Both the position numbers and the translations under genes were made by a program. DNA of 64,000 nt from a virus. Its lineage: Duplodnaviria > Heunggongvirae > Uroviricota > Caudoviricetes. The notes beneath the pieces are model-generated. The model was given only the letters and a program-made list of their open reading frames with translations, was not told the DNA's origin and made no database searches. Position 1 is the first letter of the stretch. Each line of letters opens with the position of its first letter. The stretch is from IMG/VR virus record IMGVR_UViG_3300035696_001272, one strand, 5' to 3'. Below are positions 1 to 16,354 of the stretch, piece by piece.

Positions 1-1
1 T

Positions 2-660: not shown

Positions 661-970
661 AATATTGCAGGGAGAATTAGTTTACCTTTTCGAAGGTCGT
701 GGCGACGTTGATCAAACTGAAGGCCGTGGCGGCACTCGATGTGTTGGATGGTATCTTTCTCGTAAAGATGCTGAAAACGCCGTTAAGAATGAAGGTGTAA
801 TGGGTACACCTGGCTATGTCAAATCTCATCAGGCACTTGCTGTACGAATGGATAATGGCGATTTTCAATACTACAAAATTGAAAAGCTGGAAGTTGAAAC
901 TGTGGAAACCGCTCGTCAACGTGCGCTGGCCAAGCTAACTCCAGAAGAGAAGAAATTATTGGGCTTATGA
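653..970 (+). CDS. hypothetical protein
   Basis: ATG at 653 is in frame within the 569..970 ORF and avoids most of the overlap; no motif. Confidence 0.4.
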   Translation: MVEILQGELVYLFEGRGDVDQTEGRGGTRCVGWYLSRKDAENAVKNEGVMGTPGYVKSHQALAVRMDNGDFQYYKIEKLEVETVETARQRALAKLTPEEKKLLGL

Positions 971-1446
971 TTGAAATAGTAACGGGTGATCTTTTCGAAG
1001 CCACTGAAAAATATCTTTGTCATCAATGCAATTGTGTGACTAACAAGGCCGCACACTTAGCAAAAGATATGTTCGAGAAGTTCCCACATTCTGACATCTA
1101 CACTGCACGCACCGAAGCTGACAAGCCCGGTCATATCATCATTCGTGGTGATGGTCAGAATGAAAGATTCGTTGTCGCTTTACTCGGTCAGTATTATCCC
1201 GGTCGACCAAAGTACCCTCTTTCCAATTTAGATGGTTCTGCGGTTCGCGAGAAATACTTCTACCGTTGCTTGCTGCGCCTGGCCAAAGTGCCCGACTTGG
1301 AAAGTATAGCATTCCCCTGGCGCATTGGGTGCGGTGCGGCAGGTGGTGATTGGGAACATTACCTTGGCAATATTACTAACTTTGCTCAATATGTTGGTGA
1401 AAAAGGAGTCAAAGTGCGTATTTACAGGCGTGAGGGAGACGAGTAA
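967..1446 (+). CDS. macro domain protein, TARG1/OARD1-like (ADP-ribose glycohydrolase family)
   Basis: ATGA overlap; MIEIVTGDLFEA..LCHQCNC...FPWRIGCGAAGGDWEHY matches the OARD1 pattern GDLF..HC..C...PRIGCGLD.L.WE. Confidence 0.6.
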   Translation: MIEIVTGDLFEATEKYLCHQCNCVTNKAAHLAKDMFEKFPHSDIYTARTEADKPGHIIIRGDGQNERFVVALLGQYYPGRPKYPLSNLDGSAVREKYFYRCLLRLAKVPDLESIAFPWRIGCGAAGGDWEHYLGNITNFAQYVGEKGVKVRIYRREGDE

Positions 1447-1757
1447 TGTCCAAAGCATACATATCGAACAAGTCAGTGGGTAAACTCATATCAGAAACAC
1501 AAGACAAAGCTCTTGCCCGTTTAACTATAGATCCTACGCTACTCTTCGACTATTATGTGTCCCTCACGGTTTACGATTGTGGTGGAACCTGGCAAGCCTG
1601 GTTGGATTATGGAAAATCAGGCGAGAAACCTACACACGAAGTTGTCGTTGATGGCCGAGAATATGTAGAAGGTAAAACGTTGCGAGGAGCTATTATCAAG
1701 TTGCGAAAACAAGTCCTTGATAAAGATATCTCGATCTCAATAAGGAGACACAAGTAA
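1446..1757 (+). CDS. hypothetical protein
   Basis: TAATG overlap; 103 aa; no motif. Confidence 0.4.
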   Translation: MSKAYISNKSVGKLISETQDKALARLTIDPTLLFDYYVSLTVYDCGGTWQAWLDYGKSGEKPTHEVVVDGREYVEGKTLRGAIIKLRKQVLDKDISISIRRHK

Positions 1758-2189
1758 ATGGCAATCAAATTCTATCGTACCAAAGACCCTTATGGTTTCC
1801 TTGGAAACTATTACCGAGCCCGAATGTTCATTTATGGGCGCTGGTGGAATTGGAATGAACAGCCTTACCAGGCCGCTAAGACTACCGTTCAATCTGAGAT
1901 TGATGCTATCTGGGCGGCTCCGAAGGCCAATGAGTCTCGCCTTTTGGGACAAAAAGTAACCATGCGCCCCGATTGGGATCAAGTCAAACGTCAGGTTATG
2001 AAAGAGTGTTGCATGGCTAAGTTCTTGCAACATCCAGAATTGCGTAAGCAGCTAATGGAAACTGGTGACCAAGAACTTATTGAAGACTCCCCGGTAGATT
2101 GGTATTGGGGAATTGGCGCTGATGGTAAAGGCCAAAATGTGCTCGGCCAAGTTTTAATGGAGATTCGAGAGGAGTTAAAAGGTGAGTGA
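1758..2189 (+). CDS. NADAR (YbiA-like, DUF1768) domain protein
   Basis: TAAGGAGA RBS; FLGNYY..WNWNEQPYQAAK...RPDWDQVKRQVM...DSPVDWYWGIGADGKGQNVLGQVLMEIR matches the NADAR signature (EHAYQAAKF...DW...D..WG.G.DG.G.N.LG). Confidence 0.65.
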   Translation: MAIKFYRTKDPYGFLGNYYRARMFIYGRWWNWNEQPYQAAKTTVQSEIDAIWAAPKANESRLLGQKVTMRPDWDQVKRQVMKECCMAKFLQHPELRKQLMETGDQELIEDSPVDWYWGIGADGKGQNVLGQVLMEIREELKGE

Positions 2190-2388
2190 ATTAGCTCTTA
2201 GATTTTTACAGCTTGTTGAAGATACTAAAAATCTATGTAAAGAAACTGGTTGCAGCATAGGTCTGATCAAAGCTATCCCAGAGTCTATTTATGAGGAAGT
2301 AAGGCCATTTTTAGAATGTGGATGTCTAGATTATGTTGAATTAAATGAAGATGGCAAGAAACTTTTAGAGTCACCTCCCGCCCCTTGA
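2182..2388 (+). CDS. hypothetical protein
   Basis: GTG start after a GAGGAG RBS; 68 aa. Confidence 0.3.
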   Translation: MSELALRFLQLVEDTKNLCKETGCSIGLIKAIPESIYEEVRPFLECGCLDYVELNEDGKKLLESPPAP

Positions 2389-2434
2389 CTTTTATTTTTA
2401 AAGATACAAATTACACAAATTAGGAGAAATTACA

Positions 2435-2917
2435 ATGGCAAATTTAGAAGATACAGTTCGTTCAGTCGTGCAAGATTTTATCAAGAATGAGGTTTTGTTT
2501 ACGGCATTGGACGTAAGCAATGCGGTCAAACAGGCACTTCCACACGCTAAGCATCGTGAAGTGAGAGACGTGGTTCGTGCAATGTTCACCACAGATATCG
2601 AGACCCAAGGTTGGGCTCGTACACCAATCTCCGTTACCTTAGCAGATGGTTCTCAGGCTGATGCCCTATTGTATCATCCATTGGTTGATTCCTGGGATTT
2701 GGATGCCAAGTATGATGACCAGAAGCGCAAGTCTTTTGCTTTCCGTCCAGCCGCTGCTGCCCAAGCAACGCTTGCTCGGGCACAAGCTCAAGCACAAACC
2801 GTTCCTGCCCCAGCACCAGTTCCAACTGTTGTTCCAGCTCCAGCTGCTCCAGCTTCAGCACGCTCAATGTGGGATAATCTTTTCAAGACACAACCGTCTA
2901 TCTTCCCAAAGAAGTAA
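2435..2917 (+). CDS. hypothetical protein with Ala/Pro/Gln-rich low-complexity tail
   Basis: AGGAGA RBS; 160 aa; AQAQAQTVPAPAPVPTVVPAPAAPA tail. Confidence 0.45.
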   Translation: MANLEDTVRSVVQDFIKNEVLFTALDVSNAVKQALPHAKHREVRDVVRAMFTTDIETQGWARTPISVTLADGSQADALLYHPLVDSWDLDAKYDDQKRKSFAFRPAAAAQATLARAQAQAQTVPAPAPVPTVVPAPAAPASARSMWDNLFKTQPSIFPKK

Positions 2918-2919
2918 TC

Positions 2920-3147
2920 ATGCAAGCTAAAATGCAGAGCAGGATTAAGTCTGTCAAAAGACTTCCTGACGATTCGACTGTAGAATTGGAATTCATGGGT
3001 AAAGTGACCAATACTACACTCATCAATGCCAAGGATATCAAAATGACCGCTAGTCTATCACTCAAAACTGCTCTGGCCGACCAGATCAGAGTTGGTTCCG
3101 TGATTACAATCACTCTAAGTGATGAAGAGCCAGAAAAGGTTGACTGA
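2920..3147 (+). CDS. hypothetical protein
   Basis: 75 aa; tight junctions. Confidence 0.35.
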   Translation: MQAKMQSRIKSVKRLPDDSTVELEFMGKVTNTTLINAKDIKMTASLSLKTALADQIRVGSVITITLSDEEPEKVD

Positions 3148-3862
3148 AATGGGAAGCGTTTACGTTGTAGTTGCTACACGCGATGAAGAAATTGAAAATT
3201 GTGAAACCTTTGCCGGTGTGCAGTCAGCATTAGGCAGAGCTTTCCAGTTAGCTACCAACAAGGCTGGTAGTGTCAATAGTGATTGGGTTATTACCTCACC
3301 CAGTGAAGAGACAATGCCTGATGGCTCCATTCGCTGGACTTTCATGGACACATCTAAACAAAAGGTCATGGTTTTCTATCGCAAGATTGAGGAATCTCTT
3401 TTGTCTCAGAAGGACCCCATGAGTTTCTTGGGTGGTCTTAGCAATACCAAAGATGTTCCAAGAGATGTAGTGCCAGCAGGTCATCTTGATCCGATGCAGA
3501 GTTCTTTTTCAAGTAAGTACTTTGTAGTGACACTCGTGCCTCCATATGAATTTATGGATCCTACCTTACCTGTTGGATGGTTTCTTGATAACAAGCCAGC
3601 TGTAATGCAGGATTTACTCAATCGACCCTTTGACGTTAAAGATCCTGCATGGCTCTCTGATGATCAAAAATGGGCACTGGTAACGGCTCGTGTGCGCAAA
3701 TCTCCAGGGTTCCTAACTGATATTGGTGGTGGCCTCAATCAGCAAGAGTCTCTGCTTGAGTTTAAGAACAAAACTCTAGATGGTGAATTGATTAGGGACG
3801 AAGAGATCGATGGCCTTCACGAACTTCGTGAAGCTCTAATAAACGATACTGACCACGCTTGA
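3119..3862 (+). CDS. hypothetical protein (the start may be the ATG at 3149)
   Basis: 247 aa open frame; no motif. Confidence 0.45.
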   Translation: MMKSQKRLTEMGSVYVVVATRDEEIENCETFAGVQSALGRAFQLATNKAGSVNSDWVITSPSEETMPDGSIRWTFMDTSKQKVMVFYRKIEESLLSQKDPMSFLGGLSNTKDVPRDVVPAGHLDPMQSSFSSKYFVVTLVPPYEFMDPTLPVGWFLDNKPAVMQDLLNRPFDVKDPAWLSDDQKWALVTARVRKSPGFLTDIGGGLNQQESLLEFKNKTLDGELIRDEEIDGLHELREALINDTDHA

Positions 3863-4474
3863 TTATCGCTTTTCTGATTTGGTTACTTCTTGTTGACCGG
3901 CTCTAAAATCAGGAATAACTGTCATCGTCTGTTGAAGACGAGGTGGTGGCAATTGTGCTGAGACTGGTGGTTCAATCAAAGGATGTTGGACCATGAATTG
4001 TCTAGTGCGCGTGGCTAAAGCTTTCAATCTATCCAAGCTACGCATTTCAGGATGTTGTAGCATTGGGCCAGCTGTAAAATCTACATTGGTCAGTAGTAAG
4101 TGTTGCTTAGCCAGAAAATCTAGGTTGTCTATGATGGAGCTGCTAGGTTTTTCCAAAACTAGTTGAACCAATTTTTTAGCGCCATCATATGGCTTCTCTC
4201 TGTTGAGTTCCCTAATGATTGCGTGCAGTTCTTGATAAACTTTGATCAGCATCTTCATCATTTTGGCGTCAAGTTGTCGCTCTCTCAACACAACTATTTC
4301 CCCACCCAATTCGCCAGTTATAGCACGAAGAGAGTCATGAAGTTGTTCATAGAATTTGTCCAATAAGGCGCGTTGTGTTTTATATGCTACACTAGGGGCA
4401 GGTAATTGGCCAGTAATTTCATCAGCCAATGACACAAATTGGTCAATCATTTTACAGACTTTTTCATGGGACAT
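3863..4474 (-). CDS. hypothetical protein (lone minus-strand gene)
   Basis: 203 aa ORF exactly fills the gap between plus-strand genes and starts with ATG (MSHEK). Confidence 0.4.
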   Translation of the reverse strand: MSHEKVCKMIDQFVSLADEITGQLPAPSVAYKTQRALLDKFYEQLHDSLRAITGELGGEIVVLRERQLDAKMMKMLIKVYQELHAIIRELNREKPYDGAKKLVQLVLEKPSSSIIDNLDFLAKQHLLLTNVDFTAGPMLQHPEMRSLDRLKALATRTRQFMVQHPLIEPPVSAQLPPPRLQQTMTVIPDFRAGQQEVTKSEKR

Positions 4475-4491
4475 AGGGCACCTAAAGTAAT

Positions 4492-5118
4492 ATGAAATTA
4501 TTCAATAGTATCCAAGAATTGTGGGAATACTGCGAGTTTTGTCCACTCTGCTCTAAAAACTGTCGTCCCGTAGATATATCTGTCGGACCTGATATGGTTT
4601 TTAAGCTTTCTTCTTTTCAAAAGAATAGCGATAGTTTAGATTTGCACTGCTCATTTGGCAATAAATCAAGCGTATATTTATTGGATTATTCCATCAATTG
4701 CATGGATAATACGTTTGATATACAAGTTTCGGACGAGACAATTATTGAACCGGTTCATGTTGCCAAGAGCAAAAGAGTAAAAGAGGCTTATTTTTTCTTT
4801 TATGTCCAAGGAATTTGTCCAGAATGTGAATGTTCGACGGCAAACAGCTTTGATTTAGAGTTTGACATGTTAGAGAGAAGAGTCGTTAACATTGGATTAG
4901 AGCGCGAAACCTTTAGTCTATATGGAAAAGATGAACAGTTCTACGTTACACTTTCTCATGATAGAAATGTAATGTTGGTTAGTAAAATTCACCAGTCTAA
5001 CAAGAAGGATGGCAATTTCATTTTCGGGCCACCTCTAGAACTTCCCTTAGTTAACTTAAGCTTATCTGATCTAGAAAAAGCAATCAACAAAATCAAGACG
5101 CTCATTTTATTTAGTTGA
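4492..5118 (+). CDS. hypothetical Cys-rich protein
   Basis: 208 aa; CEFCPLCSKNC...CPECEC clusters. Confidence 0.45.
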   Translation: MKLFNSIQELWEYCEFCPLCSKNCRPVDISVGPDMVFKLSSFQKNSDSLDLHCSFGNKSSVYLLDYSINCMDNTFDIQVSDETIIEPVHVAKSKRVKEAYFFFYVQGICPECECSTANSFDLEFDMLERRVVNIGLERETFSLYGKDEQFYVTLSHDRNVMLVSKIHQSNKKDGNFIFGPPLELPLVNLSLSDLEKAINKIKTLILFS

Positions 5119-5126
5119 GGTAATCC

Positions 5127-5330
5127 ATGTCTACTTTTAGTGAAGCTAATCAGGTTCGTCTCGCCCTGAAAATGAAATTATCCCAGTACTCGTGGTATAG
5201 TTCCAGCAGGATTTTTCCAGTTGATGATGGTTTTGGTATCATTGTTGGTGTCAGACATCTAGACAACTCAATTCGTAAACTGGTGGCACCAGTTATCGAT
5301 GGTATTACAGTTAAAACAGAGTTAGAATGA
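5127..5330 (+). CDS. hypothetical protein
   Basis: GAGG RBS; 67 aa. Confidence 0.35.
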   Translation: MSTFSEANQVRLALKMKLSQYSWYSSSRIFPVDDGFGIIVGVRHLDNSIRKLVAPVIDGITVKTELE

Positions 5331-6037
5331 AGATTCAACGTATTTCAGATAAGTTTGTTAGGAATTTCAAAATGCGCATTTGCCACATTAGTGACACACA
5401 TGGACAATTTCCAAGACTGTATGGGCGCTACGATGTAGTTGTTCATACTGGAGATCTGTTCCCGAATAGTCACAATGTTGGCCAAAACTTGGCAAAAGAG
5501 CAAGCCTTTCAGCTTCAGTGGCTGCGTGATTCCATGGGTGAGATTAAACAGTGGCTACAAGGGCGCACGCTCTTATATGTCCCAGGTAACCACGACTTTT
5601 TGGATTCCAGTTTGATGGAATTCGAAATGCACAAAGCTGGTCTGGAAGCCTTTGATCTAACAGATAAAATGCTTTCCTACAACGACGTCAACTTTTTTGG
5701 ATTCCCTTATGTTCCCGCCATCAATGGTATGTGGAACTATGAGAGGGAGATTCCTGAAATGGAAAAAGAAGTAGAGAAGTTAGTGGCAGCATGTAACGAT
5801 CAACACATCGATGTGCTGGCTTGCCACGCCCCTCTTTACAAGAGTCTTGATCTTTCTATGGGCAATCAGATTTTGGGTAGCTCCGTAATCTCTAATGCCC
5901 TGGATTACAAGGTTGCAAGGGACATGATGCCCTCCTATTATCTGTGCGGTCATATCCATGAAGCTAATGGAATAACTGTGCGTAATGGTATGGTAATTAG
6001 CAACGCTGCTACTACTAGGCATATAATCGAGGTTTAA
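5327..6037 (+). CDS. calcineurin-like metallophosphoesterase
   Basis: ATGA overlap; ICHISDTHG...VVHTGDL...GNHD...GHIH metallophosphatase motifs. Confidence 0.65.
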   Translation: MKIQRISDKFVRNFKMRICHISDTHGQFPRLYGRYDVVVHTGDLFPNSHNVGQNLAKEQAFQLQWLRDSMGEIKQWLQGRTLLYVPGNHDFLDSSLMEFEMHKAGLEAFDLTDKMLSYNDVNFFGFPYVPAINGMWNYEREIPEMEKEVEKLVAACNDQHIDVLACHAPLYKSLDLSMGNQILGSSVISNALDYKVARDMMPSYYLCGHIHEANGITVRNGMVISNAATTRHIIEV

Positions 6038-6038
6038 T

Positions 6039-6395
6039 ATGAAAGTCAAACCTAAAGAAGTATTGGTTAACGTTCCGGTGGTGCTGCTCTTTGATGACAA
6101 GGACAGCATCCCGGAATTGGCCAGTAATTTCAATACCTTTTTGCATGGAAAGGTGAAACTAAAATACGAAGAGATTGGAATTTTGAATGGTCAATTCGTT
6201 GCGATATTTTATTTGCAAAGAGGAGATGAGTTCCAGCAACTCAGGGATCAATTTTCAAGTTTGATTGAACAAGAAGAAATGATGAAGCATCCTGCCCCCA
6301 AATCTTATGTTCCATCTTGCACACGATGCGGTGTTGATGGCTATGACGATGATGGCACTTATCGCTGTTCAATATGTAATCAAATTTTAGGATAA
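6039..6395 (+). CDS. hypothetical protein with C-terminal zinc ribbon
   Basis: CTRCG...CSICN. Confidence 0.4.
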   Translation: MKVKPKEVLVNVPVVLLFDDKDSIPELASNFNTFLHGKVKLKYEEIGILNGQFVAIFYLQRGDEFQQLRDQFSSLIEQEEMMKHPAPKSYVPSCTRCGVDGYDDDGTYRCSICNQILG

Positions 6396-6400
6396 TGTAA

Positions 6401-6715
6401 ATGAACATTAAGACTAAAGCCAAAGAATGGCTAATTCAACACGAGCATTACGAACATGAACCATCGTTCAACGATGATTTGGAAAGTCTATCAAAGCTAA
6501 TCGAGAGTATTGCGTATTATGAGGGCGTCCTTTCTGATGAGCCCGAATATGATGAAACATTTGGTGATAACAAAACTTGTGAGTGTGGCTGCGCATATTA
6601 TCGCCATTTCGACACTTATTCTAATATGGATGCTGTTGGTTGCAAATATTGTTACCATGGCGATCACTATGGTGACAATTGTTGTGCTGGTTTCAGAGAA
6701 AGAAAAGAAGCGTGA
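6401..6715 (+). CDS. hypothetical Cys/His-rich metal-binding protein
   Basis: CECGC..C.YCYHGDHYGDNCC. Confidence 0.4.
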   Translation: MNIKTKAKEWLIQHEHYEHEPSFNDDLESLSKLIESIAYYEGVLSDEPEYDETFGDNKTCECGCAYYRHFDTYSNMDAVGCKYCYHGDHYGDNCCAGFRERKEA

Positions 6716-7197
6716 TTGTTGCATTCACTGGCCACAGACCAGATAAGTTGGGAGGTTACAAGGTACCCAATCCAATGTACATCAAGGTCTGCAGAGAAAT
6801 TGACAAGGTTCTAAGGGAGCTGAAGCCAGAGAAAGTTATCACTGGAATGGCTTTGGGTGTGGATCAGTGGGCAGCCATGATTGCTCACAAGATGGAGATT
6901 CCATTCCTTGCCGCCATCCCTTTTGAAAAGCAAGAGGCCAAATGGCCTGAGCAAAGCCAAAAGACTTACCGTCTTTTACGCAAGCTAGCCTCGGAAGAAG
7001 TTATCGTAAGTCCTGGCGGTTATTCTGCCGACAAAATGCAGACTAGAAACAAGTGGATGGTGGACCATTGTGATAAACTTATCGCAATATGGGATGGATC
7101 TTCTGGTGGCACCGGCAATTGTATCAATTATGCGAAATCTATTAAAAGGGAAATCATTTATATCGATCCCAAAGCCACTACTACAACTGGAGTGTAA
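6679..7197 (+). CDS. YpsA/DUF1273-family SLOG-superfamily protein
   Basis: VIVAFTGHRP..GVDQWAAMIA..IPFEKQEAKWPEQSQKTYRLL..NKWMVDHCDKLIAIWDGSSGG parallels B. subtilis YpsA (TGYKP..GVELWAAEAA..ITPFYEQEKNWKEPNKEQYEAVL..NQWFIDKSDGLLLLYDPEKEGS). Confidence 0.55.
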   Translation: MLCWFQRKKRSVIVAFTGHRPDKLGGYKVPNPMYIKVCREIDKVLRELKPEKVITGMALGVDQWAAMIAHKMEIPFLAAIPFEKQEAKWPEQSQKTYRLLRKLASEEVIVSPGGYSADKMQTRNKWMVDHCDKLIAIWDGSSGGTGNCINYAKSIKREIIYIDPKATTTTGV

Positions 7198-8430
7198 ATG
7201 AGCACTTATCAGCCTAATAAATTCCGTGTTTATTCAAAGCAAGACGTAGCAAGACTAAAAGGTTCTTTTGATATCGAATATACGCTCGCCAAGATGGGCG
7301 CTAACAGATTATGGCAACTATTCAATACGCAGCCATATGTTAAAGCCTTAGGAGCATTAACTGGAAATCAAGCCGTTCAACAGGTGAAAGCTGGATTGGA
7401 TGCCGTTTATCTTTCTGGTTGGCAAGTGGCAGCTGACGCTAATCTGGCCGGTCAAATGTATCCTGATCAATCCTTGTACCCTGCCAACAGCGTCCCTAAT
7501 GTGGTTAAGAAGGTCAATTCGGCTCTAATGAGGGCTGATCAGATTGAACATTCTGAAGGCGGTACACAAAGATATTGGATGGCTCCTATCATCGCTGACG
7601 CAGAGGCCGGCTTTGGTGGTCCTCTTAATTCATTCGAATTAATGAAGGCAATGATTGAAGCTGGAGCTGCTGGCGTTCACTTTGAAGACCAACTATCCTC
7701 TGAGAAGAAGTGTGGACATATGGGTGGCAAAGTTTTAGTCCCCATGTCTCATTTTATCAAGTCTTTGGTAGCAGCCAGGCTAGCCGCTGACATTTGCGGC
7801 ACTGATACCATTATCGTGGCTAGAACAGATGCCGACTCTGCTAAACTCCTGACTTCCAACATTGACGAAAAGGATTTACCATTTATTCTTTCAGATATTC
7901 GTACAGAAGAAGGATTTTACAAAATCAAAAGTGGTATGGAGTATTGCGTAGCCAGAGGCTTAGCCTTTGCCCCATATGCCGACATGCTTTGGATGGAAAC
8001 TTCCACTCCAGACATTGGACAGGCCAAAGAATTTGCCCAAGAGATTCATAAACAGTTTCCTAACAAACTTTTGATGTATAATTGTTCTCCTTCTTTCAAT
8101 TGGAAGAAAAACTTGACCGAATCTCAAATTGCCTCTTTCCAAGATGAATTAGGTTCATTTGGCTATAAATTCCAGTTCGTTACCCTGGCTGGCTTTCATG
8201 CTCTAAATCATTCCATGTTTTCTTTATCCAAGAATTACAGAGAGCAAGGCATGACTGCTTATGCCGCTTTACAAGAACAAGAGTTCGAGAACGTGGCCGC
8301 TGGATATACTGCCGTAAAACACCAACATGAAGTTGGTGCTAGTTATTTTGACGAAGTTTCCAAACTAGTTTCGGGTGGCTCTAGTGCTACCGTTGCTTTA
8401 GAGGGATCTACTGAAGAAAAACAATTCTAA
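7198..8430 (+). CDS. aceA: isocitrate lyase
   Basis: 410 aa; KKCGHMGGK signature; long colinear identity with E. coli AceA ([58 protein letters not shown]). Confidence 0.9.
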
Positions 8431-9947
8431 TGTATGTGCAAGATATAGACAAATATAGTGTCGTATTGACTGACGAAGCAATCAATTTTGTAGTAGATTT
8501 AGTAGAAAAGTTTTCTCCTAGAGTCAAATCAATATTAGGGCTGCGTCAGCTTATGGCTGGTAAAAGGCCCAGTTTCTTAGCTTATTCCTCTTATATTCGA
8601 GAATCTGATTGGACTGTTGCACCATTACCAGCGGACCTATTAGATAGGCGAGTTGAGATTACTGGACCAACAGATCGCAAGATGATCATCAATGCACTCA
8701 ATTCTGGTGCCAATGTTTTCATGGCCGACTTGGAGGACTCTAATTCTCCAACCTGGGAAAACATGATGCAAGGTCAGATTAATTTGATGGATGCCGTCCG
8801 TCGCACTATTATCTTTACTTCTGAAGCAGGTAAGCTCTATCAACTCAATGAAAAGACTGCTGTTTTAATGGTAAGGCCACGAGGCTGGCATTTAGTAGAA
8901 AAACATTTTCTGGTCAACGATCAGCCTATTCCAGGCGCTTTGTTAGACTTTGGGCTGTACTTTTTCCATAATGCCAAAGAGTTGATGGCTCGTGGTACCG
9001 CTCCATATTTTTATCTTCCCAAGATGGAAAATCATCTGGAGGCCAAATTATGGAACGATATTTTCACATACGCTCAAGCTAAGCTTGGTATTCCAGTTGG
9101 AACCATTAAAGCTACTTGCCTAATCGAAACTATTAGTGCTGCCTTTGAAATGAATGAAATCTTATGGGAATTGAAAGATCATTCGGCTGGCCTCAATTGT
9201 GGTCGTTGGGATTACATTTTTAGCTTCATTAAGAGATTTGCCAAAGATCCAAATTTTATCCTGCCAGATCGTTCTCAGTTGACCATGGACAAGGGCTTTC
9301 TCAATGCTTACGTTCGTCTCTTAATACAGACCTGTCATCGAAGAAATGTGCATGCTATGGGTGGAATGGCGGCGCAAATCCCCATTAAAAACGATGAGAT
9401 GGCAAATAAGAAAGCTCTTGCTAAAGTGGCTTCCGACAAAATGCGTGAGGTTCAGGCCGGTCATGATGGTACTTGGGTCGCTCATCCTGGATTAGTTTCA
9501 TTGGCCCGTGATATTTTTGACCATGATATGCCTGCATCTAATCAAATACAGAAGATACCTAGCTATGTTGTAACAGAAGCGGATCTGTTAACAGTTCAAG
9601 AAGGAACCTACACCGAAGAAGGCTTGCGACACAATATTAGGGTAGGCGTTATTTATTTAGAATCTTGGTTGAATGGAAATGGTTGCGTGCCAATATATAA
9701 TCTAATGGAGGACGCGGCCACAGCAGAACTGTCTCGCGCCCAGGTTTGGCAAGGCATCTATCACCAGGTTATAATAGGTGACAAACCATTAACCAAGGAG
9801 CTTTTCTTACAGATTCTTGATGAAGAAATGAATAACATTCAAAAGGGCAATCGCTTCTTAGAAGCCCGCGAATTATTTATTAAATTATCAACGGCCCCAG
9901 AATTTGAAGAATTTCTTACACTTATAGCTTATAATAACTTGACATAA
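8430..9947 (+). CDS. aceB: malate synthase A
   Basis: TAATG overlap; 505 aa; FMADLEDSNSPTW, YFYLPKMEN, GTIKATCLIET, GLNCGRWDYIFS, GGMAAQIP, GHDGTWVAHPGL, EDAATAELSRAQVWQ colinear with E. coli AceB. Confidence 0.9.
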   Translation: MYVQDIDKYSVVLTDEAINFVVDLVEKFSPRVKSILGLRQLMAGKRPSFLAYSSYIRESDWTVAPLPADLLDRRVEITGPTDRKMIINALNSGANVFMADLEDSNSPTWENMMQGQINLMDAVRRTIIFTSEAGKLYQLNEKTAVLMVRPRGWHLVEKHFLVNDQPIPGALLDFGLYFFHNAKELMARGTAPYFYLPKMENHLEAKLWNDIFTYAQAKLGIPVGTIKATCLIETISAAFEMNEILWELKDHSAGLNCGRWDYIFSFIKRFAKDPNFILPDRSQLTMDKGFLNAYVRLLIQTCHRRNVHAMGGMAAQIPIKNDEMANKKALAKVASDKMREVQAGHDGTWVAHPGLVSLARDIFDHDMPASNQIQKIPSYVVTEADLLTVQEGTYTEEGLRHNIRVGVIYLESWLNGNGCVPIYNLMEDAATAELSRAQVWQGIYHQVIIGDKPLTKELFLQILDEEMNNIQKGNRFLEARELFIKLSTAPEFEEFLTLIAYNNLT

Positions 9948-9954
9948 TAGTATT

Positions 9955-10041
9955 GCCATTGTGGCGGAACAGGCAGACGCGCTGGTCTCAAAAATCAGTG
10001 TCCGCAAGGACGTGTGGGTTCGACTCCCACCAATGGCACCA
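9955..10041 (+). tRNA. tRNA-Leu(CAA), type II, encoded CCA
   Basis: Acceptor GCCATTG/CAATGGC; anticodon stem CTGGT/ATCAG with loop CTCAAAA; long variable arm; T-arm GGGTTCGACTCCC; architecture as E. coli tRNA-Leu. Confidence 0.8.
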
Positions 10042-10072
10042 AGATTCTTGATTTATATTATAGGAAGGTCAT

Positions 10073-11473
10073 ATGGCTGATAAAGACGTTCAGGTCTGGA
10101 GAGAAGGCTCTTCAGGCGAACCCAAGTTTCCAGTTAAGTTTGATGTTCTGAAGAAAGCAATTCTTCAAGTAACTGATATCGGTACCAATCGTAATAAGTA
10201 TTATGCCATCGAGTTACATGAGGCTGGTAACAAATACCGAGTCTATACTCATTATGGACGAACGGACGATTTAGATTCTAATCCTGATGCTGGCATTCGT
10301 GAATGTCGTTATCCAGTAAATCTAATTCATGCTGAGAATTTGTATGAAAAGATTTACAAAGAGAAAACTTCTGCTCGTAAAGGTTACAAGGAATTAAATG
10401 TGGCTTCAGCCAAAATTGGTTCCAAACAAACTCTTGGTAAGAGTAGCGGTGAAGTAGACGACAAGACTCTCAAGAAGATGGCTAAAGTTCAGGCAACTGT
10501 AGTCAAAGATGCAGCTCCACCCGTTGCTATTCCTAAAGAGGTTCAGAAGCTAGTTACTCATTTATATGATGAAGCAACTAAGACACTGACTAAAAAGGTT
10601 AATGCTACAATTACCGCTAACGGTATCGAAACTCCTCTTGGTGTTTTGACAATCGGCCAGATCGAAAAGGGCGAAAAGATTCTAGAAGAAATTGCATCTT
10701 CCCTCAAAAAGAAAAACGATGTTCTCTCTAATTTGAGTGGGCAATTCTACACGGTTATTCCCCATAAATTGGGACGTTCTAAAATTGATGTTTTAGATGC
10801 CATTATCAATACAACATCCAAAGTTAAGGAAAAAGAGGATACCTTGCAACTCATGCGAGATATGCTTAACGTAAGCGGTAAAGGCGCAAACGTTTTAGCC
10901 AATCCCAAAGTTGAAAAGCAGTATCTGGCCCTCGGTTGTGAAATTGGTTACCTGGATAAAAACCATGACGATTTCAAGAAGATCAAATCTTCTGTTAAGG
11001 GTTACAGTAACTCTATCAAAAACATTTTCACCATAAAGAGACCTGACGAGCACAAAGCCTTCACCACCAACATTTCTAACCATAAACTCTTGTTCCATGG
11101 TTCTGGTGCCCACAATTGGGTTGGTATTCTGTCTCGTGGCTTGATGTTACCAAAGATGGTCACTAAATTTGGAGTTCATCGTACTGATGAGGGTTGGTTA
11201 GGTCACGGCATTTATTTCGGAGACGTTATCGACACCGCTCTAAATTATGCTTCCAGCGGTAAATTAGACTCTACTTTCGTAGCCATTGCTAAAGTGGCTT
11301 TAGGCAAGATTAAGAAATACAAAGTAGTTACTTATGGTTTAACTTCTCCTCCAAAGGGATACCATAGTTGTCATGGTGACCCAACTGGATATTCAGAGTT
11401 TGATGATCATGAATTTGTTATCTATGATACGAAACAGCAGCGTTTGGAGTATTTACTAGAACTCGACTGGTGA
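10073..11473 (+). CDS. PARP-like ADP-ribosyltransferase (WGR - helical regulatory - catalytic domain)
   Basis: GGAAGG RBS; WGR-like NKYYAIELHEAGNKYRVYTHYGRTD; helical-domain LSGQFYTVIPHKLG; catalytic HGSGAHNWVGILSRGL, GHGIYFGD, HEFVIYD (H-Y-E triad). Confidence 0.7.
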   Translation: MADKDVQVWREGSSGEPKFPVKFDVLKKAILQVTDIGTNRNKYYAIELHEAGNKYRVYTHYGRTDDLDSNPDAGIRECRYPVNLIHAENLYEKIYKEKTSARKGYKELNVASAKIGSKQTLGKSSGEVDDKTLKKMAKVQATVVKDAAPPVAIPKEVQKLVTHLYDEATKTLTKKVNATITANGIETPLGVLTIGQIEKGEKILEEIASSLKKKNDVLSNLSGQFYTVIPHKLGRSKIDVLDAIINTTSKVKEKEDTLQLMRDMLNVSGKGANVLANPKVEKQYLALGCEIGYLDKNHDDFKKIKSSVKGYSNSIKNIFTIKRPDEHKAFTTNISNHKLLFHGSGAHNWVGILSRGLMLPKMVTKFGVHRTDEGWLGHGIYFGDVIDTALNYASSGKLDSTFVAIAKVALGKIKKYKVVTYGLTSPPKGYHSCHGDPTGYSEFDDHEFVIYDTKQQRLEYLLELDW

Positions 11474-11477
11474 AGAC

Positions 11478-11939
11478 ATGAATTTAAGAAATTTGTTGAC
11501 CTTGACAATTCAAAGATTAAGTTTTAACTTGGTTGCTCAACGTCCCGGCCTCGTGGAAGAACTCCGCAAATTAACTATAGAGCCATTCTCAGGAATGAAT
11601 CATGAGTTAAATTGGATGCTTAGAGAGGCTAAAGAGCGAGAGATTGATTGCGATATATTTTTAGCTTATCGCTCTCAAAGTCTAGTCGGTTGGGCACTCT
11701 TGTCAAAAGAAGACACTGATTTCGTCTTTGCCAACTCTTATGAGCCTTTCAGGTCTGAAAATGGTTGGCTCTTTCAAGTGTTCATTGACCCTGACCATCG
11801 GAGACAAGGAATTGCCTCTGAACTGTTAAAGAGAGCCCAAAATCTAATTGGAGACGGCACCCTTTGTATCTGTCCCTGGGACGAAGTAAGTAGAGGGTTT
11901 TACAGTTCACTCAATCTTAGTAATGCGAGACACTTATGA
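11478..11939 (+). CDS. GNAT-family N-acetyltransferase
   Basis: FQVFIDPDHRRQGIASELLKRA motif A. Confidence 0.55.
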   Translation: MNLRNLLTLTIQRLSFNLVAQRPGLVEELRKLTIEPFSGMNHELNWMLREAKEREIDCDIFLAYRSQSLVGWALLSKEDTDFVFANSYEPFRSENGWLFQVFIDPDHRRQGIASELLKRAQNLIGDGTLCICPWDEVSRGFYSSLNLSNARHL

Positions 11940-12511
11940 TATACAACACCATTGAAGAACTGGCCAAATATCTAGAAAGTTATAATTTGCCTTATAGGCA
12001 TCTTGTAGCAACGTCTGGCGGCTTCGATCCCATTCACATCGGGCACTTACGCTGCATCCAGCAATCCAAGCAAAGTCTTCACGATATTTTGGTAGTGATT
12101 GTTAACGGTGATGGATTCCTCACTCGTAAGAAGGGTAAGCCCTTCATGCCTCTTGCTGAGCGTATGGAGATAATTGATGGCCTTCGTGGTGTTGATTTTG
12201 TCACCACTTGGGATGATGGCTCACAGAATGTTATAGGTGCCCTGGAAATTCTAAAACCACATCTTTTCGCTAAGGGTGGTGATAGGTCTTCGGCTGATAA
12301 GGTTCCCGAAGCTGAAGTTTGCGCCAAAATTGGTTGCACGATTTTGTATGGTGTTGGTGGAACTGATAAGGTTCAATCAAGTAGCAACCTTATCAAAAAC
12401 TCAAAAGAAGATAAAATCAAATATCTTGATCCTAATTGTGAACATAATTGGGTATTGGATGGACATAATGCTGGTGAAGGCATTTGCTCCAAGTGTTTGA
12501 AGAGAGAATAA
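11936..12511 (+). CDS. cytidylyltransferase-superfamily nucleotidyltransferase, HldE/RfaE domain II (heptose-1-P adenylyltransferase)-like
   Basis: ATGA overlap; GGFDPIHIGH (HxGH); VNGDGFLTRKKGKPFMPLAERMEIIDGLRGVDFV and FAKGGD...SSSNLIKN parallel E. coli HldE C-domain ([36 protein letters not shown]...VKGGD...STTNIIKK). Confidence 0.55.
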   Translation: MIYNTIEELAKYLESYNLPYRHLVATSGGFDPIHIGHLRCIQQSKQSLHDILVVIVNGDGFLTRKKGKPFMPLAERMEIIDGLRGVDFVTTWDDGSQNVIGALEILKPHLFAKGGDRSSADKVPEAEVCAKIGCTILYGVGGTDKVQSSSNLIKNSKEDKIKYLDPNCEHNWVLDGHNAGEGICSKCLKRE

Positions 12512-12525
12512 AACATAGCAATAAT

Positions 12526-12535
12526 CTGATATATA
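12526..12535 (+). promoter_or_regulatory. extended -10 element CTGATATATA upstream of the tRNA-Leu cluster
   Basis: TGnTATATA 11 nt before the first tRNA; an identical 10-mer recurs at 15488 before the second tRNA cluster. Confidence 0.4.
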
Positions 12536-12546
12536 CAACACACAAT

Positions 12547-12630
12547 GCTACCGTGGTGGAATGGCAGACACGCTGGTCTTAGAAGCCAGTGCCGCGAGGC
12601 GTGAAGGTTCGAGTCCTTTCGGTAGCACCA
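12547..12630 (+). tRNA. tRNA-Leu(UAG), type II, encoded CCA
   Basis: Acceptor GCTACCG/CGGTAGC; anticodon loop CTTAGAA; long variable arm. Confidence 0.8.
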
Positions 12631-12633
12631 ATT

Positions 12634-12720
12634 GTTCATGTGGTGGAATGGCAGACACACTAGTCTCAGAAGCTAGGGTCCGTAAGGACATTGAGGGTTC
12701 AAGTCCCTCCAGGAACACCA
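12634..12720 (+). tRNA. tRNA-Leu(CAG), type II, encoded CCA (A-G mismatch at acceptor pair 5-68)
   Basis: Acceptor GTTCATG/CAGGAAC; anticodon stem CTAGT/GCTAG with loop CTCAGAA. Confidence 0.7.
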
Positions 12721-12726
12721 AAATAT

Positions 12727-12813
12727 CTCATCGTGGTGGAATGGTATACACACTAGGCTGAGAACCTAGGGCTCGAAAGGGCCGTGAGGGTTCGAGTCCC
12801 TCCGATGAGACCA
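12727..12813 (+). tRNA. tRNA-Leu(GAG), type II, encoded CCA
   Basis: Acceptor CTCATCG/CGATGAG; anticodon stem CTAGG/CCTAG with loop CTGAGAA. Confidence 0.75.
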
Positions 12814-12824
12814 AGGAAGTTATT

Positions 12825-13109
12825 ATGTTATTCGATGAATTCTGTGAATGTCGCTGCCATACAAGCGGCAATATCAAGTATATTGTAGCTTGCTGCCATA
12901 CTTGTTCTTATTGTCATAAGAAAGTTAAGACGCATGCTTATGTTGAACATCAAAAGGAATGTTCTGATAAGCACGATCCAAAAATAAATGGTGTGCGACT
13001 AACAGAGATTCTAAGTGCTCTCAAAACACTTGAAGATGCCGATATTGATATCACTAGCATCAGCGCTCAGGTTAGCAAGTTATTTGCCAGCGCATTGAGC
13101 GAAGAATAA
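12825..13109 (+). CDS. hypothetical Cys-rich zinc-finger protein
   Basis: AAGGAAG RBS; CECRCH...CCHTCSYCH. Confidence 0.4.
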   Translation: MLFDEFCECRCHTSGNIKYIVACCHTCSYCHKKVKTHAYVEHQKECSDKHDPKINGVRLTEILSALKTLEDADIDITSISAQVSKLFASALSEE

Positions 13110-14057
13110 TCAGAATCCAGGTCCAAAGTCACCAGGCTTGCGCTGTTGTTGCCGTTGTTGCTGGGGCTGTTGTGCTTGTTGTTGCTTTTGCTTTTGTCTC
13201 GTATTCATGTAGACATTAGCATTATCATCATAGACCATAGCTTTTCCAGTAGCAAACTCAGGTTCACGCTTCAAATACTCAAAGGCTAATTCGTTGCTTA
13301 TGCCCGGATTATCTACGCTTTTCTTATAGATATCTAATGCGGACTGTGTGATGTGGCCTAATGCTCCATCTGTGTTTACTCCCAACATAGCCTGAAACTT
13401 TTTGTCAATTGGCGGATACTTTGACTTATGTTGTTGGGCCACAGGTGCCTGTTGCACTTTTGGAGGCATTATATTCACGTTACTGAACATTGTAGGAATG
13501 CCGCCACCAAACCATGGAGTTGGAGTTTGTTGCGTCTGAGCTTCTTTTACAGACCCACTTTTAACTTTTTTTTTAGAAAGATCGCATCCGATCTTGTGCT
13601 CTAGGTGCTCTAGATCAAGACCTTTGCCGCCACACTCTGGACACCTTGCTTCAGGCATAAAATTGGCGTACTTAGAAAGCAACAAGTCAATTTCCTCAAA
13701 AGAAGACTTTTTAGACTTCTTATCACTCTTACCAATAGATGGATACTTAGAATGAACTTTACGGCTTACCAAAGCTTGTAATCCCTTTAGAGAGCCCTTG
13801 TACCATTCTGGCACAGAGCTATATTGATGAACACGAGCTAAAGCATTACGTGCTTGATCTTCGTCATTAATTGGAAAATGATCTTTTTTATCCTTAGCTG
13901 ATTCAGCTGGTACACAGACAGTTCCTCTATTACGGACCTTAGCCTTTGGATCTAGCTTCTTCTTTTCCTTTTTCTTAGCTGTGGCAAGCAAGGATTCAGT
14001 AGCTAAATGTTCATAATTTACGGCCATTTTAATTAATTGGTCTGGACTGTAGGACAT
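13110..14057 (-). CDS. hypothetical protein (Lys-rich with Gln-rich C-terminal tail; CPECGGKG knuckle)
   Basis: 315 aa minus-strand ORF starting with ATG (MSYSP) between two plus-strand genes. Confidence 0.45.
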   Translation of the reverse strand: MSYSPDQLIKMAVNYEHLATESLLATAKKKEKKKLDPKAKVRNRGTVCVPAESAKDKKDHFPINDEDQARNALARVHQYSSVPEWYKGSLKGLQALVSRKVHSKYPSIGKSDKKSKKSSFEEIDLLLSKYANFMPEARCPECGGKGLDLEHLEHKIGCDLSKKKVKSGSVKEAQTQQTPTPWFGGGIPTMFSNVNIMPPKVQQAPVAQQHKSKYPPIDKKFQAMLGVNTDGALGHITQSALDIYKKSVDNPGISNELAFEYLKREPEFATGKAMVYDDNANVYMNTRQKQKQQQAQQPQQQRQQQRKPGDFGPGF

Positions 14058-14102
14058 TAAAAACCTCGATATATTCTGTATACTAATAATTAGGCAATAT
14101 TA

Positions 14103-14636
14103 TTGCTACATTTATGGTGTTCATTCGTGGTTGCATTTAATAACGAAGAAAGTTTGTTAGCTTGGGCAGCGGGCCTGTTCGATGGTGAAGGAACCATTTA
14201 TTCTGCTAATGGTAGGGTTAGAGCTTCTGTGCATATGACTGACCTTGATGTATTAGAAACTTTTCATTCTAATTTCGGTGGAGCCATACATAAATGTAAG
14301 AAGCAAAAAGAACATCATAAGGAATCTTGGCGATGGTCATTACAAGCCTCTAGTGAGGCCGTGAATTTTCTGAAAAAGATTTTACCGTTTTTACATAATC
14401 GAAGGACAAAGAGAGCAAAAGAAGCGATAGAATACTATAACATAGTGGAACAGCAACAAAAAGACAAACAAGGTAAAGTATTAGAGTTAAGAAGTAAAAT
14501 TGCAAAAATGAGTAAAAGTGGTATGACGCACAAGGACATATCAATATTATTCAATGTAGATAGAAGTTATGTAACACGTATTTTGAATGGAAAATATGGT
14601 GATGTGAGGGAGCTGGTTGAACCCGGTACTCTGTGA
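14103..14636 (+). CDS. LAGLIDADG-type homing endonuclease with C-terminal HTH (non-ATG start; exact 5' end uncertain)
   Basis: LLAWAAGLFDGEGTIYS LAGLIDADG-like motif; C-terminal GMTHKDISILFNVDRSYVTRIL HTH; the 3' end overlaps tRNA-His. Confidence 0.5.
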   Translation: MLHLWCSFVVAFNNEESLLAWAAGLFDGEGTIYSANGRVRASVHMTDLDVLETFHSNFGGAIHKCKKQKEHHKESWRWSLQASSEAVNFLKKILPFLHNRRTKRAKEAIEYYNIVEQQQKDKQGKVLELRSKIAKMSKSGMTHKDISILFNVDRSYVTRILNGKYGDVRELVEPGTL

Positions 14637-14675
14637 AAGTATCTCTGACGGGATCGTAACCCGTACATCACCCCA
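14598..14675 (+). tRNA. tRNA-His(GUG) with encoded G-1 and CCA
   Basis: G-1 then acceptor GTGATGT/ACATCAC; discriminator C; anticodon stem GTACT/AGTAT with loop CTGTGAA; T-arm ACGGGATCGTAACCCGT. Confidence 0.75.
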
Positions 14676-14678
14676 ACT

Positions 14679-14752
14679 GGTCTGTTCGTCTAATGGTAGG
14701 ACAAAGCGCTTTCAATGCTTGAACAGGAGATCGATACTCCTACAGATCACCA
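14679..14752 (+). tRNA. tRNA-Glu(UUC), encoded CCA
   Basis: Acceptor GGTCTGT/ACAGATC; D-arm GTCTAATGGTAGGAC; anticodon stem AAGCG/TGCTT with loop CTTTCAA. Confidence 0.75.
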
Positions 14753-14974
14753 ATGAAAAAACTTGCTTTCTTAGTAGTACTTGGATTTATCTTTGTTGCT
14801 TGTCATACAAATATTACTGCAGCCAATGCGCCAAAGGGATCTATTTTATGCGGTAATGATTCGGGATGTCCAGATGATTACTACTGTGGATTTGCTGGAG
14901 TAGATCAGCCAGCCACTTGTATTTATTCTCCTGGTTATCAAATAATGGAGTGGGAAAGCCACACAGGTCGTTAA
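14753..14974 (+). CDS. small secreted Cys-rich protein, probable lipoprotein
   Basis: MKKLAFLVVLGFIFVAC signal peptide with lipobox-like VAC; 8 Cys in 73 aa. Confidence 0.45.
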   Translation: MKKLAFLVVLGFIFVACHTNITAANAPKGSILCGNDSGCPDDYYCGFAGVDQPATCIYSPGYQIMEWESHTGR

Positions 14975-14979
14975 TAAAC

Positions 14980-15055
14980 GGCCCCATCATCTAATGGTTT
15001 AGGATGAGAGACCTTCACTCTCTTCATATGGGTTCGAATCCCATTGGGGTCGCCA
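14980..15055 (+). tRNA. tRNA-Glu(UUC)-like with a noncanonical anticodon loop CCTTCAC (C at position 33), encoded CCA
   Basis: Acceptor GGCCCCA/TGGGGTC; Glu-type D-arm ATCTAATGGTTTAGGAT; anticodon stem AGAGA/TCTCT; T-arm ATGGGTTCGAATCCCAT. The alternative register gives loop ACCTTCA (Lys CUU), also with C33. Confidence 0.55.
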
Positions 15056-15463
15056 ATGAAGTATTTTTTATTTTTAAGTCTATTGTTAGCTTTTAGTTGT
15101 ACACAAAATACTCCTGCTGTTCCTTTATTGGAAACTTCACCAGTTCCCGTACAAGTTGCTTTAGGTACCGATGGTAAATTATATTGGCGCTGTCAGTTAC
15201 AAGGATTGAATCAAGACTCAGTGCGAGTCAGTTGTAATTTTCACAACCAATCTATCGATACTCTTAATAGCTGCATTAGAGTTTCCTATTACGATAATGC
15301 AGATGGCCATCTAGTTGCTCAAAGTCACCAAATTTGTTCTGGTTCTTTGACACCTGGCACTTCTAGTGATAAAGTAGCAATATTTATGGAAAATAGCCGC
15401 AGGGCTTTACAAAACTGCGGGGAATCGTTAAATTTGTGTGTGATGTTGGCGGGCGATCATTAA
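15056..15463 (+). CDS. secreted protein or lipoprotein
   Basis: MKYFLFLSLLLAFSCTQ signal peptide; 135 aa; several Cys. Confidence 0.45.
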   Translation: MKYFLFLSLLLAFSCTQNTPAVPLLETSPVPVQVALGTDGKLYWRCQLQGLNQDSVRVSCNFHNQSIDTLNSCIRVSYYDNADGHLVAQSHQICSGSLTPGTSSDKVAIFMENSRRALQNCGESLNLCVMLAGDH

Positions 15464-15487
15464 AGTAATAAATCGCCTACTAATAAG

Positions 15488-15497
15488 CTGATATATA
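15488..15497 (+). promoter_or_regulatory. extended -10 element CTGATATATA upstream of the second tRNA cluster
   Basis: Identical 10-mer to 12526; 9 nt before tRNA-Glu(CUC). Confidence 0.4.
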
Positions 15498-15506
15498 GGA
15501 TACACT

Positions 15507-15581
15507 GGCCCATTCGTCTAACGGTTAGGACGGCAGCCTCTCAAGTTGTTAATACGGGTTCGATTCCCGTATGGGTCGCCA
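15507..15581 (+). tRNA. tRNA-Glu(CUC), encoded CCA
   Basis: Acceptor GGCCCAT/ATGGGTC; D-arm GTCTAACGGTTAGGAC; anticodon stem GCAGC/GTTGT with loop CTCTCAA. Confidence 0.7.
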
Positions 15582-15592
15582 AGTAAGTTTAT

Positions 15593-15668
15593 GCGCCTGT
15601 AGCTCAATGGATAGAGCATTCGGTTTCTACCCGACAGGTTGGGGGTTCAAGTCCCTCCAGGCGTGCCA
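15593..15668 (+). tRNA. tRNA-Arg(UCU), encoded CCA
   Basis: Acceptor GCGCCTG/CAGGCGT; D-arm GCTCAATGGATAGAGC; loop TTTCTAC; 27-43 mismatch. Confidence 0.7.
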
Positions 15669-15679
15669 AGTTAATTTAT

Positions 15680-15755
15680 GTGCCTGTAGCTCAATGGATA
15701 GAGCGTTGGTCTACGAAACCAAAGGTTGTGAGTTCAACCCTCACCAGGCATACCA
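15680..15755 (+). tRNA. tRNA-Arg(ACG), encoded CCA
   Basis: Acceptor GTGCCTG/CAGGCAT; anticodon stem TTGGT/ACCAA with loop CTACGAA. Confidence 0.8.
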
Positions 15756-15757
15756 AA

Positions 15758-16204: not shown

Positions 16205-16207
16205 TAC

Positions 16208-16283: not shown

Positions 16284-16354
16284 AGTAGCTCCGTAAGGAG
16301 CTATTTTTATTTGTGCTGGTATATGTACTTCGGAATTTCAATTCAGGAGTCATT

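Follow-up and report, generated by a model that had tools for sequence, protein, structure and literature searches.

The virus record IMGVR_UViG_3300035696_001272 of IMG/VR, classified within the Caudoviricetes, includes a stretch of 64,000 nucleotides (hereafter the window) that carries two adjacent genes of the glyoxylate bypass. The first encodes an isocitrate lyase (ICL) of the AceA type and the second a malate synthase (MS) of the AceB type. From the two proteins, their relatives and their surroundings we consider it probable that an uncultivated huge phage carries both as intact auxiliary metabolic genes maintained by vertical descent, and that together they would give the infected cell a glyoxylate bypass.

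The two genes belong to a packed same-strand run in which a YpsA-like gene is followed by ICL, MS and a tRNA-Leu gene (Table 1). The original prediction, made from the letters of the window alone, had described the pair as flanked by a YpsA-like gene and the tRNA island, and its position is as stated there: the TAA stop of the YpsA-like open reading frame (ORF) at 7195-7197 abuts the ICL start codon, and the tRNA-Leu(CAA) gene begins 8 nt past the MS stop. Alternative starts of the YpsA-like ORF are a TTG at 6679 and an ATG at 6775.

Table 1. Features of the bypass locus and its immediate surroundings in the window
Feature	Position	Strand	Evidence
YpsA/SLOG-family gene	6712..7197	+	PF06908 YpsA, E=4.8e-18
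Isocitrate lyase (ICL, AceA type), 410 aa	7198..8430	+	ORF, as originally predicted
TAATG stop/start overlap of ICL and MS	8428..8432	+	1 nt shared
Malate synthase A (MS, AceB type), 505 aa	8430..9947	+	ORF, as originally predicted
tRNA-Leu(CAA), first of the tRNA island	9955..10041	+	ARAGORN; Rfam 54.7 bits
PARP-like protein (WGR, PARP regulatory and PARP catalytic domains)	10073..11473	+	PF00644, E=1.9e-28; PF02877; PF05406

Protein families and catalytic residues

The ICL protein matches Pfam PF00463 (E=4e-106) and scores well above the cut-offs of the NCBIfam equivalog NF011645 (707.7 bits, cut-off 562) and of TIGR01346 (561 bits, cut-off 275.9), whereas methylisocitrate lyase models reach 71-92 bits, far under their cut-offs of about 353. 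Its best solved structure is 6lrp (638 bits), and the alignment reaches the last residue of both 6lrp and 7cmx. The MS protein matches the TIM-barrel family PF01274 and the C-terminal domain PF20659. It scores 756.4 bits with the malate synthase A model TIGR01344 (cut-off 594.5) and 25.6 bits with the malate synthase G model (cut-off 565), which identifies it as the A isoform. Alignments to solved structures run end to end (3cux, 637 bits; E. coli 3cuz, 550 bits). Near-colinearity with the E. coli enzymes had been claimed for both proteins and was found in both when they were compared with the products of an annotated aceBAK locus, with 59% identity to AceA over residues 10-410 and 51% identity to AceB over residues 12-501.

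Conserved positions were defined as alignment columns at least 97% conserved among bacterial proteins (82 ICLs and 51 MSs, from named genomes and E. coli), and the E. coli residue numbering was verified on translated aceA and aceB. ICL retains 160 of 167 such columns, the seven changes being mostly conservative, and MS retains 113 of 114. The ICL catalytic loop K170-K171-C172-G173-H174 corresponds to E. coli K193-H197, includes the active-site cysteine and is invariant across the 82 bacterial and 23 phage-type sequences. We take the metal and substrate ligands of the E. coli enzyme to be S91, G92, W93, D108, D157, E159, H184, E186, R232, N317, S319, S321 and T351. The window protein retains S73-G74-W75, D90, D134, E136, H161, E163, R209, N295, S297, S299 and T329; these positions are identical in all 23 phage-type ICLs, and all 18 of the active-site positions checked are unchanged. 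In MS the catalytic aspartate, the enolate-stabilising arginine and two Mg2+ ligands were checked, and R149, E233, D261 and D428 (E. coli R166, E250, D278 and D447) do not vary among the 51 bacterial and 8 phage-type sequences. Mechanistic roles have been described for the equivalent malate synthase G residues D631 and R338 (PMC3112382).

The two genes are full length at 7198-9947 as had been proposed, and the motifs originally quoted for them, including GHDGTWVAHPGL, are all present. Matches of this kind are well outside what chance could produce. A PADLOC search gave no defence-family match for either protein.

Assembly and composition

The exact ICL protein is found on 8 contigs, the longest of the contigs carrying ICL and MS being 476,653 bp. 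Four separately assembled contigs (Logan, ENA and JGI) match window positions 1-18430 with 0 mismatches, over up to 18,430 bases and across both junctions of the pair. The samples behind these contigs are possibly related, and the agreement is then a check on the assemblers more than on independent biology. The gene order recurs on a fifth contig, of 188 kb. The concern that host DNA might have been joined in at about 7.1 kb and about 9.95 kb is not borne out.

In composition the pair is like the rest of the window. The GC content is 42.7% for ICL and 40.9% for MS, with 37% at third codon positions, as against 66% for a Polyangiaceae-like aceA, and codon usage departs from that of the other genes of the window by +0.5 (ICL) and -0.4 (MS) standard deviations. 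ICL and MS are native to a phage-like genome and are not an assembly artefact.

Phylogeny and selection

Neighbour-joining (NJ) distance trees with bootstrap were built with 81 named ICLs and 50 named MSs. The 23 best ICL matches (72-100% identical, 409-411 aa) are monophyletic with 100% bootstrap and the 8 phage-type MSs with 98%, and both clades occur on phage-like contigs of up to 477 kb. Against relatives, synonymous divergence is saturated (pS 0.69-0.83) and nonsynonymous divergence is low (pN 0.08-0.20), so that dN/dS is no higher than about 0.05 in either gene. These values indicate that both genes are under strong purifying selection and have been functional in phages for a long time. 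The deep branching of the MS clade matches that of the partner ICLs, and the history of MS would fit one acquisition followed by losses or by exchange between phages. Within the phage ICL clade, bootstrap at internal nodes is 6-51%, too low to fix an order of MS gains and losses.

The best-scoring named cellular homologues by HMMER ranking belong to the Polyangiaceae (Myxococcota), with 70-72% identity for ICL and 65-67% for MS, and bacterial homologues overall are 64-72% identical. The Polyangiaceae were set aside as donor because the NJ trees give no well-supported sister group for either protein. The nearest NJ branches are a Bacteriovoracaceae ICL (56% bootstrap) and the MS of a contig from a metagenome-assembled genome with 37.5% GC (88%). 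Low-GC taxa group with the phage clade in these trees, which may be compositional attraction. Phylogeny had been proposed as a way to date and source the acquisition; the well-supported phage clades and the saturated pS speak to its age, and a donor does not emerge.

The contig that provides the nearest MS branch (L055; CAYMMQ010000074.1) is 11 kb long and binned as Ectothiorhodospiraceae. It encodes a 409-aa ICL in the order MS then ICL, together with an HNH gene and UvdE, and may be misbinned viral sequence.

Gene order in relatives

Syntenic relatives of the window share a backbone of Metallophos, YpsA, ICL, tRNA-Leu and PARP/GNAT genes and a tRNA island for Leu, His, Glu and Arg. YpsA stands immediately 5' of ICL in L001-L004, L005, L088, L089, L090, L091 and L093, and MS is present in some relatives and absent from others (Table 2).

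Table 2. ICL and MS in the window and in its relatives
Stretch	Contig or genome	ICL	MS
Window	477 kb contig	reference	present, 1-nt overlap
L091	66 kb contig	87% identical to window, closest relative	absent
L090	160 kb contig	85% identical to window	absent
L088	467 kb contig	82% identical to window	absent
L005/L006	204 and 130 kb	81% identical	present, HNH-type ORF between genes
L089	462 kb contig	78% identical to window	absent
L092	427 kb	75% identical	present, 1-nt gap, then ADP-ribosylglycohydrolase
L093	11 kb contig	72% identical to window	absent

Where MS is missing, tRNA-Leu(CAA), PARP or GNAT lies directly 3' of ICL; in L089 the tRNA-Leu(CAA) gene is 32 nt past ICL, and in L090 and L091 ICL is followed by PARP. 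We therefore read MS as a presence/absence polymorphism at one site, of which tRNA-Leu(CAA) forms the downstream edge in the window. The lyase is the invariant element of the lineage and the synthase is optional, standing between ICL and tRNA-Leu(CAA)/PARP.

HNH-type genes occur within the window and in relatives. In L005, the 204-kb IMG/VR relative, the endonuclease-like ORF between ICL and MS lies at 9534-9992, with counterparts in L098 and L099, and further HNH-like ORFs lie at 12154-12564 and 14148-14585.

Across IMG/VR, 204 stretches encode ICL relatives, and gene order was counted for the best 80 of these 204 loci. Among these 80, 49 lack an MS within 5 kb, MS precedes ICL in 28, and ICL precedes MS in 3; two of those three are of this lineage. 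The ICL-MS order is the reverse of that in E. coli, in a Polyangiaceae-like genome and in the majority of the sampled bacteria. The phage order does occur in Ktedonobacteria and in some Alphaproteobacteria, with more distant MSs.

The ICL-MS junction

The junction reads ...TTC TAA TG TAT..., with the ICL stop at 8428-8430 and the MS start at 8430-8432. A GGAG motif resembling a Shine-Dalgarno sequence lies 5 nt 5' of the ICL start codon, and no such motif was found 5' of the MS start. Reinitiation at MS after translation of ICL is plausible because ICL has a well-spaced GGAG and MS has none, and the two genes may be co-transcribed and translationally coupled.

The overlap itself, on which the original claim of coupling was built, exists but is ordinary here. 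Among 80 same-strand junctions in the window, 20 have a 4-nt overlap, 6 a 1-nt overlap and 2 abut; overlapping or abutting junctions thus number 28 (26 with the 1- or 4-nt overlap), and the TAATG is a matter of general genome style rather than a special device. Nor is it kept in relatives: the two genes are 1 nt apart in L092, and in L005 an HNH ORF separates them. A scan of the window for terminator-like sites gave no excess over the shuffle level. Promoter-like sites numbered 35, compared with 22.3 +/- 5.5 in shuffles, and none in the window was positioned to mark the start of a transcription unit for the YpsA-ICL-MS run.

Genome type

The window is 92.5% coding and has 98 mostly small ORFs. 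Its genome style is phage-like, with dense coding, small overlapping genes, a tRNA island, polynucleotide kinase, RNA ligases and a tyrosyl-tRNA synthetase. Relatives are found on contigs of 427-467 kb and also in IMG/VR viral genomes of 204 and 130 kb. Contig sizes of 427-477 kb and the possession of translation genes are typical of the huge phages in a 2025 preprint (10.1101/2025.02.27.640493). PHROG scans took in 32 window ORFs, 30 of which are of at least 200 aa, and 10-kb extensions on each side were checked by Pfam annotation. An Rfam scan of the window detected no rRNA and matched tRNAs alone. A megablast search of GenBank and INPHARED with 25 kb of sequence returned no close phage relative, cultured relatives included. 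That the element is a phage is well supported by this context.

Neighbouring genes

The tRNA island extends over 9955-16283 and has 11 genes, by amino acid Leu (four), His (one), Glu (three) and Arg (three), with small ORFs between the tRNAs; its order is kept in L005, L088-L091 and L093. A bacterial-type tyrosyl-tRNA synthetase is encoded at 17951-19144. Just beyond the window are genes for IF3 (L096 17599-18141), a PheRS-like protein, two Thg1-like proteins and a PTH2-like protein, the coordinates of these translation genes also including L097 1675-2742 and 602-1399, as well as a gene for an NAD-dependent DNA ligase.

A second PARP paralogue is cut by the start of the window, where its 3' end occupies 1-289, and a NADAR gene lies at 1758-2189. 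Relatives add a NUDIX gene (L089 11922-12518) and an ADP-ribosylglycohydrolase gene directly 3' of MS (L092 7786-8712). PARP homologues of GenBank phages are at most 24-26% identical (Xoo-sp13, CM1 and RAS14).

The window also encodes a T4-style set for RNA and tRNA repair, comprising an RlaP nucleotidyltransferase, a polynucleotide kinase, two RNA ligases and a NinI-like phosphatase (25664-26812, 34804-35799, 36843-37604, 38293-39540 and 43237-43959). Two MoxR-like AAA ATPases (phrog_1297) are present, one adjoining a DUF2201 metallopeptidase/VWA protein (19903-21030, 21069-22817 and 29389-30495). After a strand switch, a minus-strand cluster of about 17 kb for sugar nucleotides and glycosyl transfer occupies 44818-61869. 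It includes three epimerase/dehydratases, two DegT-type aminotransferases, several glycosyltransferases and, at 58686-61094, an 802-aa fusion of methyltransferase, GT2 and GT6.

Comparison with known systems

Bypass genes in viruses have been reported before. Ocean viromes yielded both aceA and aceB in 2013 (PMC4053976), and an aceBA operon was described in TARA_ERS478052_N000008, a marine T4-like environmental viral genome that is complete at 179 kb (Nishimura et al. 2017; PMC5332604). That genome resembles the window in having adjacent shunt genes in a large uncultivated phage that also carries polysaccharide-biosynthesis genes (in the window, the cluster at 44.8-61.9 kb). Its order is aceB then aceA, as in 28 of the best 80 IMG/VR loci, whereas the window has aceA then aceB, as in 3 of them, and this difference in gene order suggests that the two pairs had separate origins.

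In the 2025 preprint, 98 huge phages have 98 ICL and 22 MS genes, the two lying side by side in 20 genomes and with a single gene between them in 2 (10.1101/2025.02.27.640493). The pairs of its Huge Phage Genome Collection are like that of the window, with adjacent enzymes and ICL far commoner than MS; the preprint text searched makes no mention of a fixed YpsA-ICL linkage, of the ICL-then-MS order or of a presence/absence site for MS. Phage pairs of aceA and aceB are thus already published, and the present one has possibly been catalogued already, although a literature search by accession returned no match.

Among GenBank phage records, tblastn found one genuine ICL and no genuine MS. The ICL belongs to Phage C48C1 (OQ984149.1, Kyanoviridae, 156 kb), where it lies at 44175-45416 (L095 4998-6239) and is annotated as 'hypothetical protein'. 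It is homologous to the window ICL, with 55% identity at 98% coverage, but stands alone, with no MS nearby, in an unrelated genome context. Other matches to aceA and aceB in GenBank 'phage' records were rejected as mostly bacterial contamination, and blastn with the pair reached bacterial aceA in misfiled records alone. The sources of false matches in INPHARED include 500-kb Salmonella chromosomal contigs and host fragments of 1-4 kb labelled as phages (AFYI01000007.1, AGRM01000005.1, OR845679.1, OR850939.1, OR845746.1 and OR851757.1).

The cellular operons differ from the window pair in arrangement. In E. coli aceBAK the enzymes are colinear with those of the window and have the same catalytic residues, but the gene order is reversed, aceK is present and ICL is longer at its N terminus. 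The aceB-aceA genes of Myxococcota (Polyangiaceae) also run from MS to ICL, at 66% GC compared with 42% in the window. A tblastn search of the whole window with E. coli AceK gave a best E value of 0.16, in agreement with the original observation that aceK is absent. The contention that this is not a host-like ace operon context holds as well, since the order is the reverse both of aceBAK and of the best-scoring bacterial homologues, and the neighbours of the pair, unlike those of aceBAK, are phage genes and tRNAs.

In the literature searched, no phage ICL or MS was found to have been assayed biochemically, and the pair is for that reason a reasonable candidate for a first such test.

Interpretation

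If the two proteins act as their families do, ICL would cleave isocitrate to succinate and glyoxylate, and MS would condense glyoxylate with acetyl-CoA to malate. The bypass would then skip the two reactions in which the tricarboxylic acid cycle decarboxylates its intermediates and reduces NAD(P)+ in the infected cell, conserving carbon and lowering NAD(P)H production. Encoded by the phage, it would also escape host transcriptional control and the control exerted through AceK and isocitrate dehydrogenase.

Several points weigh against a phage-encoded bypass of this kind. In five syntenic relatives (L088-L091 and L093) YpsA-ICL occupies the same position but MS is absent, so that the lineage can dispense with the full bypass. 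The claim that a phage carries the complete bypass stands for the window, where both genes are intact, but does not extend to a conserved unit. The ICL N terminus is about 16 residues shorter than that of E. coli AceA, as it is throughout the phage clade (409-411 aa). The MS_N domain PF20656 was undetected by Pfam at E<=0.001 in the window MS; TIGR01344 aligns from MS residue 12 to model position 1, PF20656 is recorded for the relatives P0123, P0125, P0126 and P0129, and the N-terminal region of MS is present in a shortened and diverged form. As noted, the samples behind the matching contigs may be related. Genes for capsid, portal or terminase did not turn up in the approximately 84 kb examined (the window and its 10-kb extensions), and for this reason the phage identity is indirect, drawn from context and from the IMG/VR relatives. 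The original description of a phage gene pair is upheld for residence, by composition, synteny and IMG/VR relatives, while no hallmark structural gene was found among the 32 window ORFs scanned. Lastly, expression of the pair, its enzyme activities and the rewiring of host carbon flux that had originally been proposed are predictions.

The main rival explanation is that ICL alone is the selected function, through the supply of succinate and glyoxylate or the draining of isocitrate, possibly with methylisocitrate lyase activity, and that MS is a dispensable passenger; to speak of a complete shunt would then over-read one genome. The MS-less relatives in Table 2 favour this explanation, as do the 49 of the best 80 IMG/VR ICL loci that have no MS within 5 kb, the excess of ICL over MS in the preprint, and the solitary ICL of Phage C48C1. 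Yet MS, where present, is constrained by purifying selection no less strongly than ICL and retains all but one of its conserved columns, and the single MS clade, with deep branching that matches the partner ICLs, points to long retention of the synthase. Many hosts, moreover, have an MS of their own, so that phages with ICL only may still complete the shunt. On this evidence we regard selection for the lyase alone as possible, though on the unlikely side.

The surroundings of ICL suggest a further reading, in which it is a fixed component of an NAD+/ADP-ribose conflict island and not a free-standing gene of carbon metabolism. What speaks for it is conserved gene linkage, with two PARP-like genes, NADAR, the YpsA/SLOG gene abutting ICL and, in relatives, NUDIX and ADP-ribosylglycohydrolase genes. 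If this were true, ICL, with a phage or host MS, could sidestep the two NAD(P)+-dependent decarboxylations and so keep C4 and biosynthetic flux running while NAD+ is consumed, and the consumer could be the phage PARPs or NAD+-depleting defences of the host. We consider such a role doubtful.

It is also quite improbable that the element is not a tailed phage but some other large replicon (a giant plasmid, for instance, or a reduced symbiont or eukaryotic giant virus) whose bypass genes serve its own or the cell's metabolism. That structural and packaging genes were not seen in the approximately 84 kb would suit such an origin, as would the tyrosyl-tRNA synthetase, IF3, the PheRS-like gene, the 11 tRNAs, the large sugar-biosynthesis cluster and the eukaryote-like architecture of the PARP; but PHROG matches identify phage-type Pnk, RNA ligases, RlaP and HNH proteins, the genes overlap in bacterial style with Shine-Dalgarno motifs, rRNA was not detected in the window, the relatives are filed as IMG/VR viral genomes, and the contig sizes of 427-477 kb and the translation genes are like those of published huge phages.

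That the pair is host DNA misassembled onto a phage, or a bacterial ace operon captured only very recently, is effectively refuted already and extremely unlikely: although the proteins are typically cellular, at 64-72% identity to bacterial ones, and most GenBank 'phage' records of aceA and aceB are bacterial contamination, the four separately assembled contigs agree across both junctions, GC content (41-43%) and codon usage are those of the window and not of the 66% GC Polyangiaceae-like aceA, synteny is kept in relatives with saturated synonymous divergence, and the gene order is opposite to that of the best-scoring bacterial homologues.

Huge-phage auxiliary metabolic genes thus remain the probable identity of the pair. 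The finding opens no new category, and what it adds is a picture at the level of the lineage. The pair is old and native to a clade of phages of 430-480 kb, is held there under strong purifying selection, and is arranged differently from that of the marine aceBA phages, and it is the lyase, not the pair, that is invariant. For the metabolism of the virocell this poses the question of whether ICL alone gives a benefit, and what MS may add to it.

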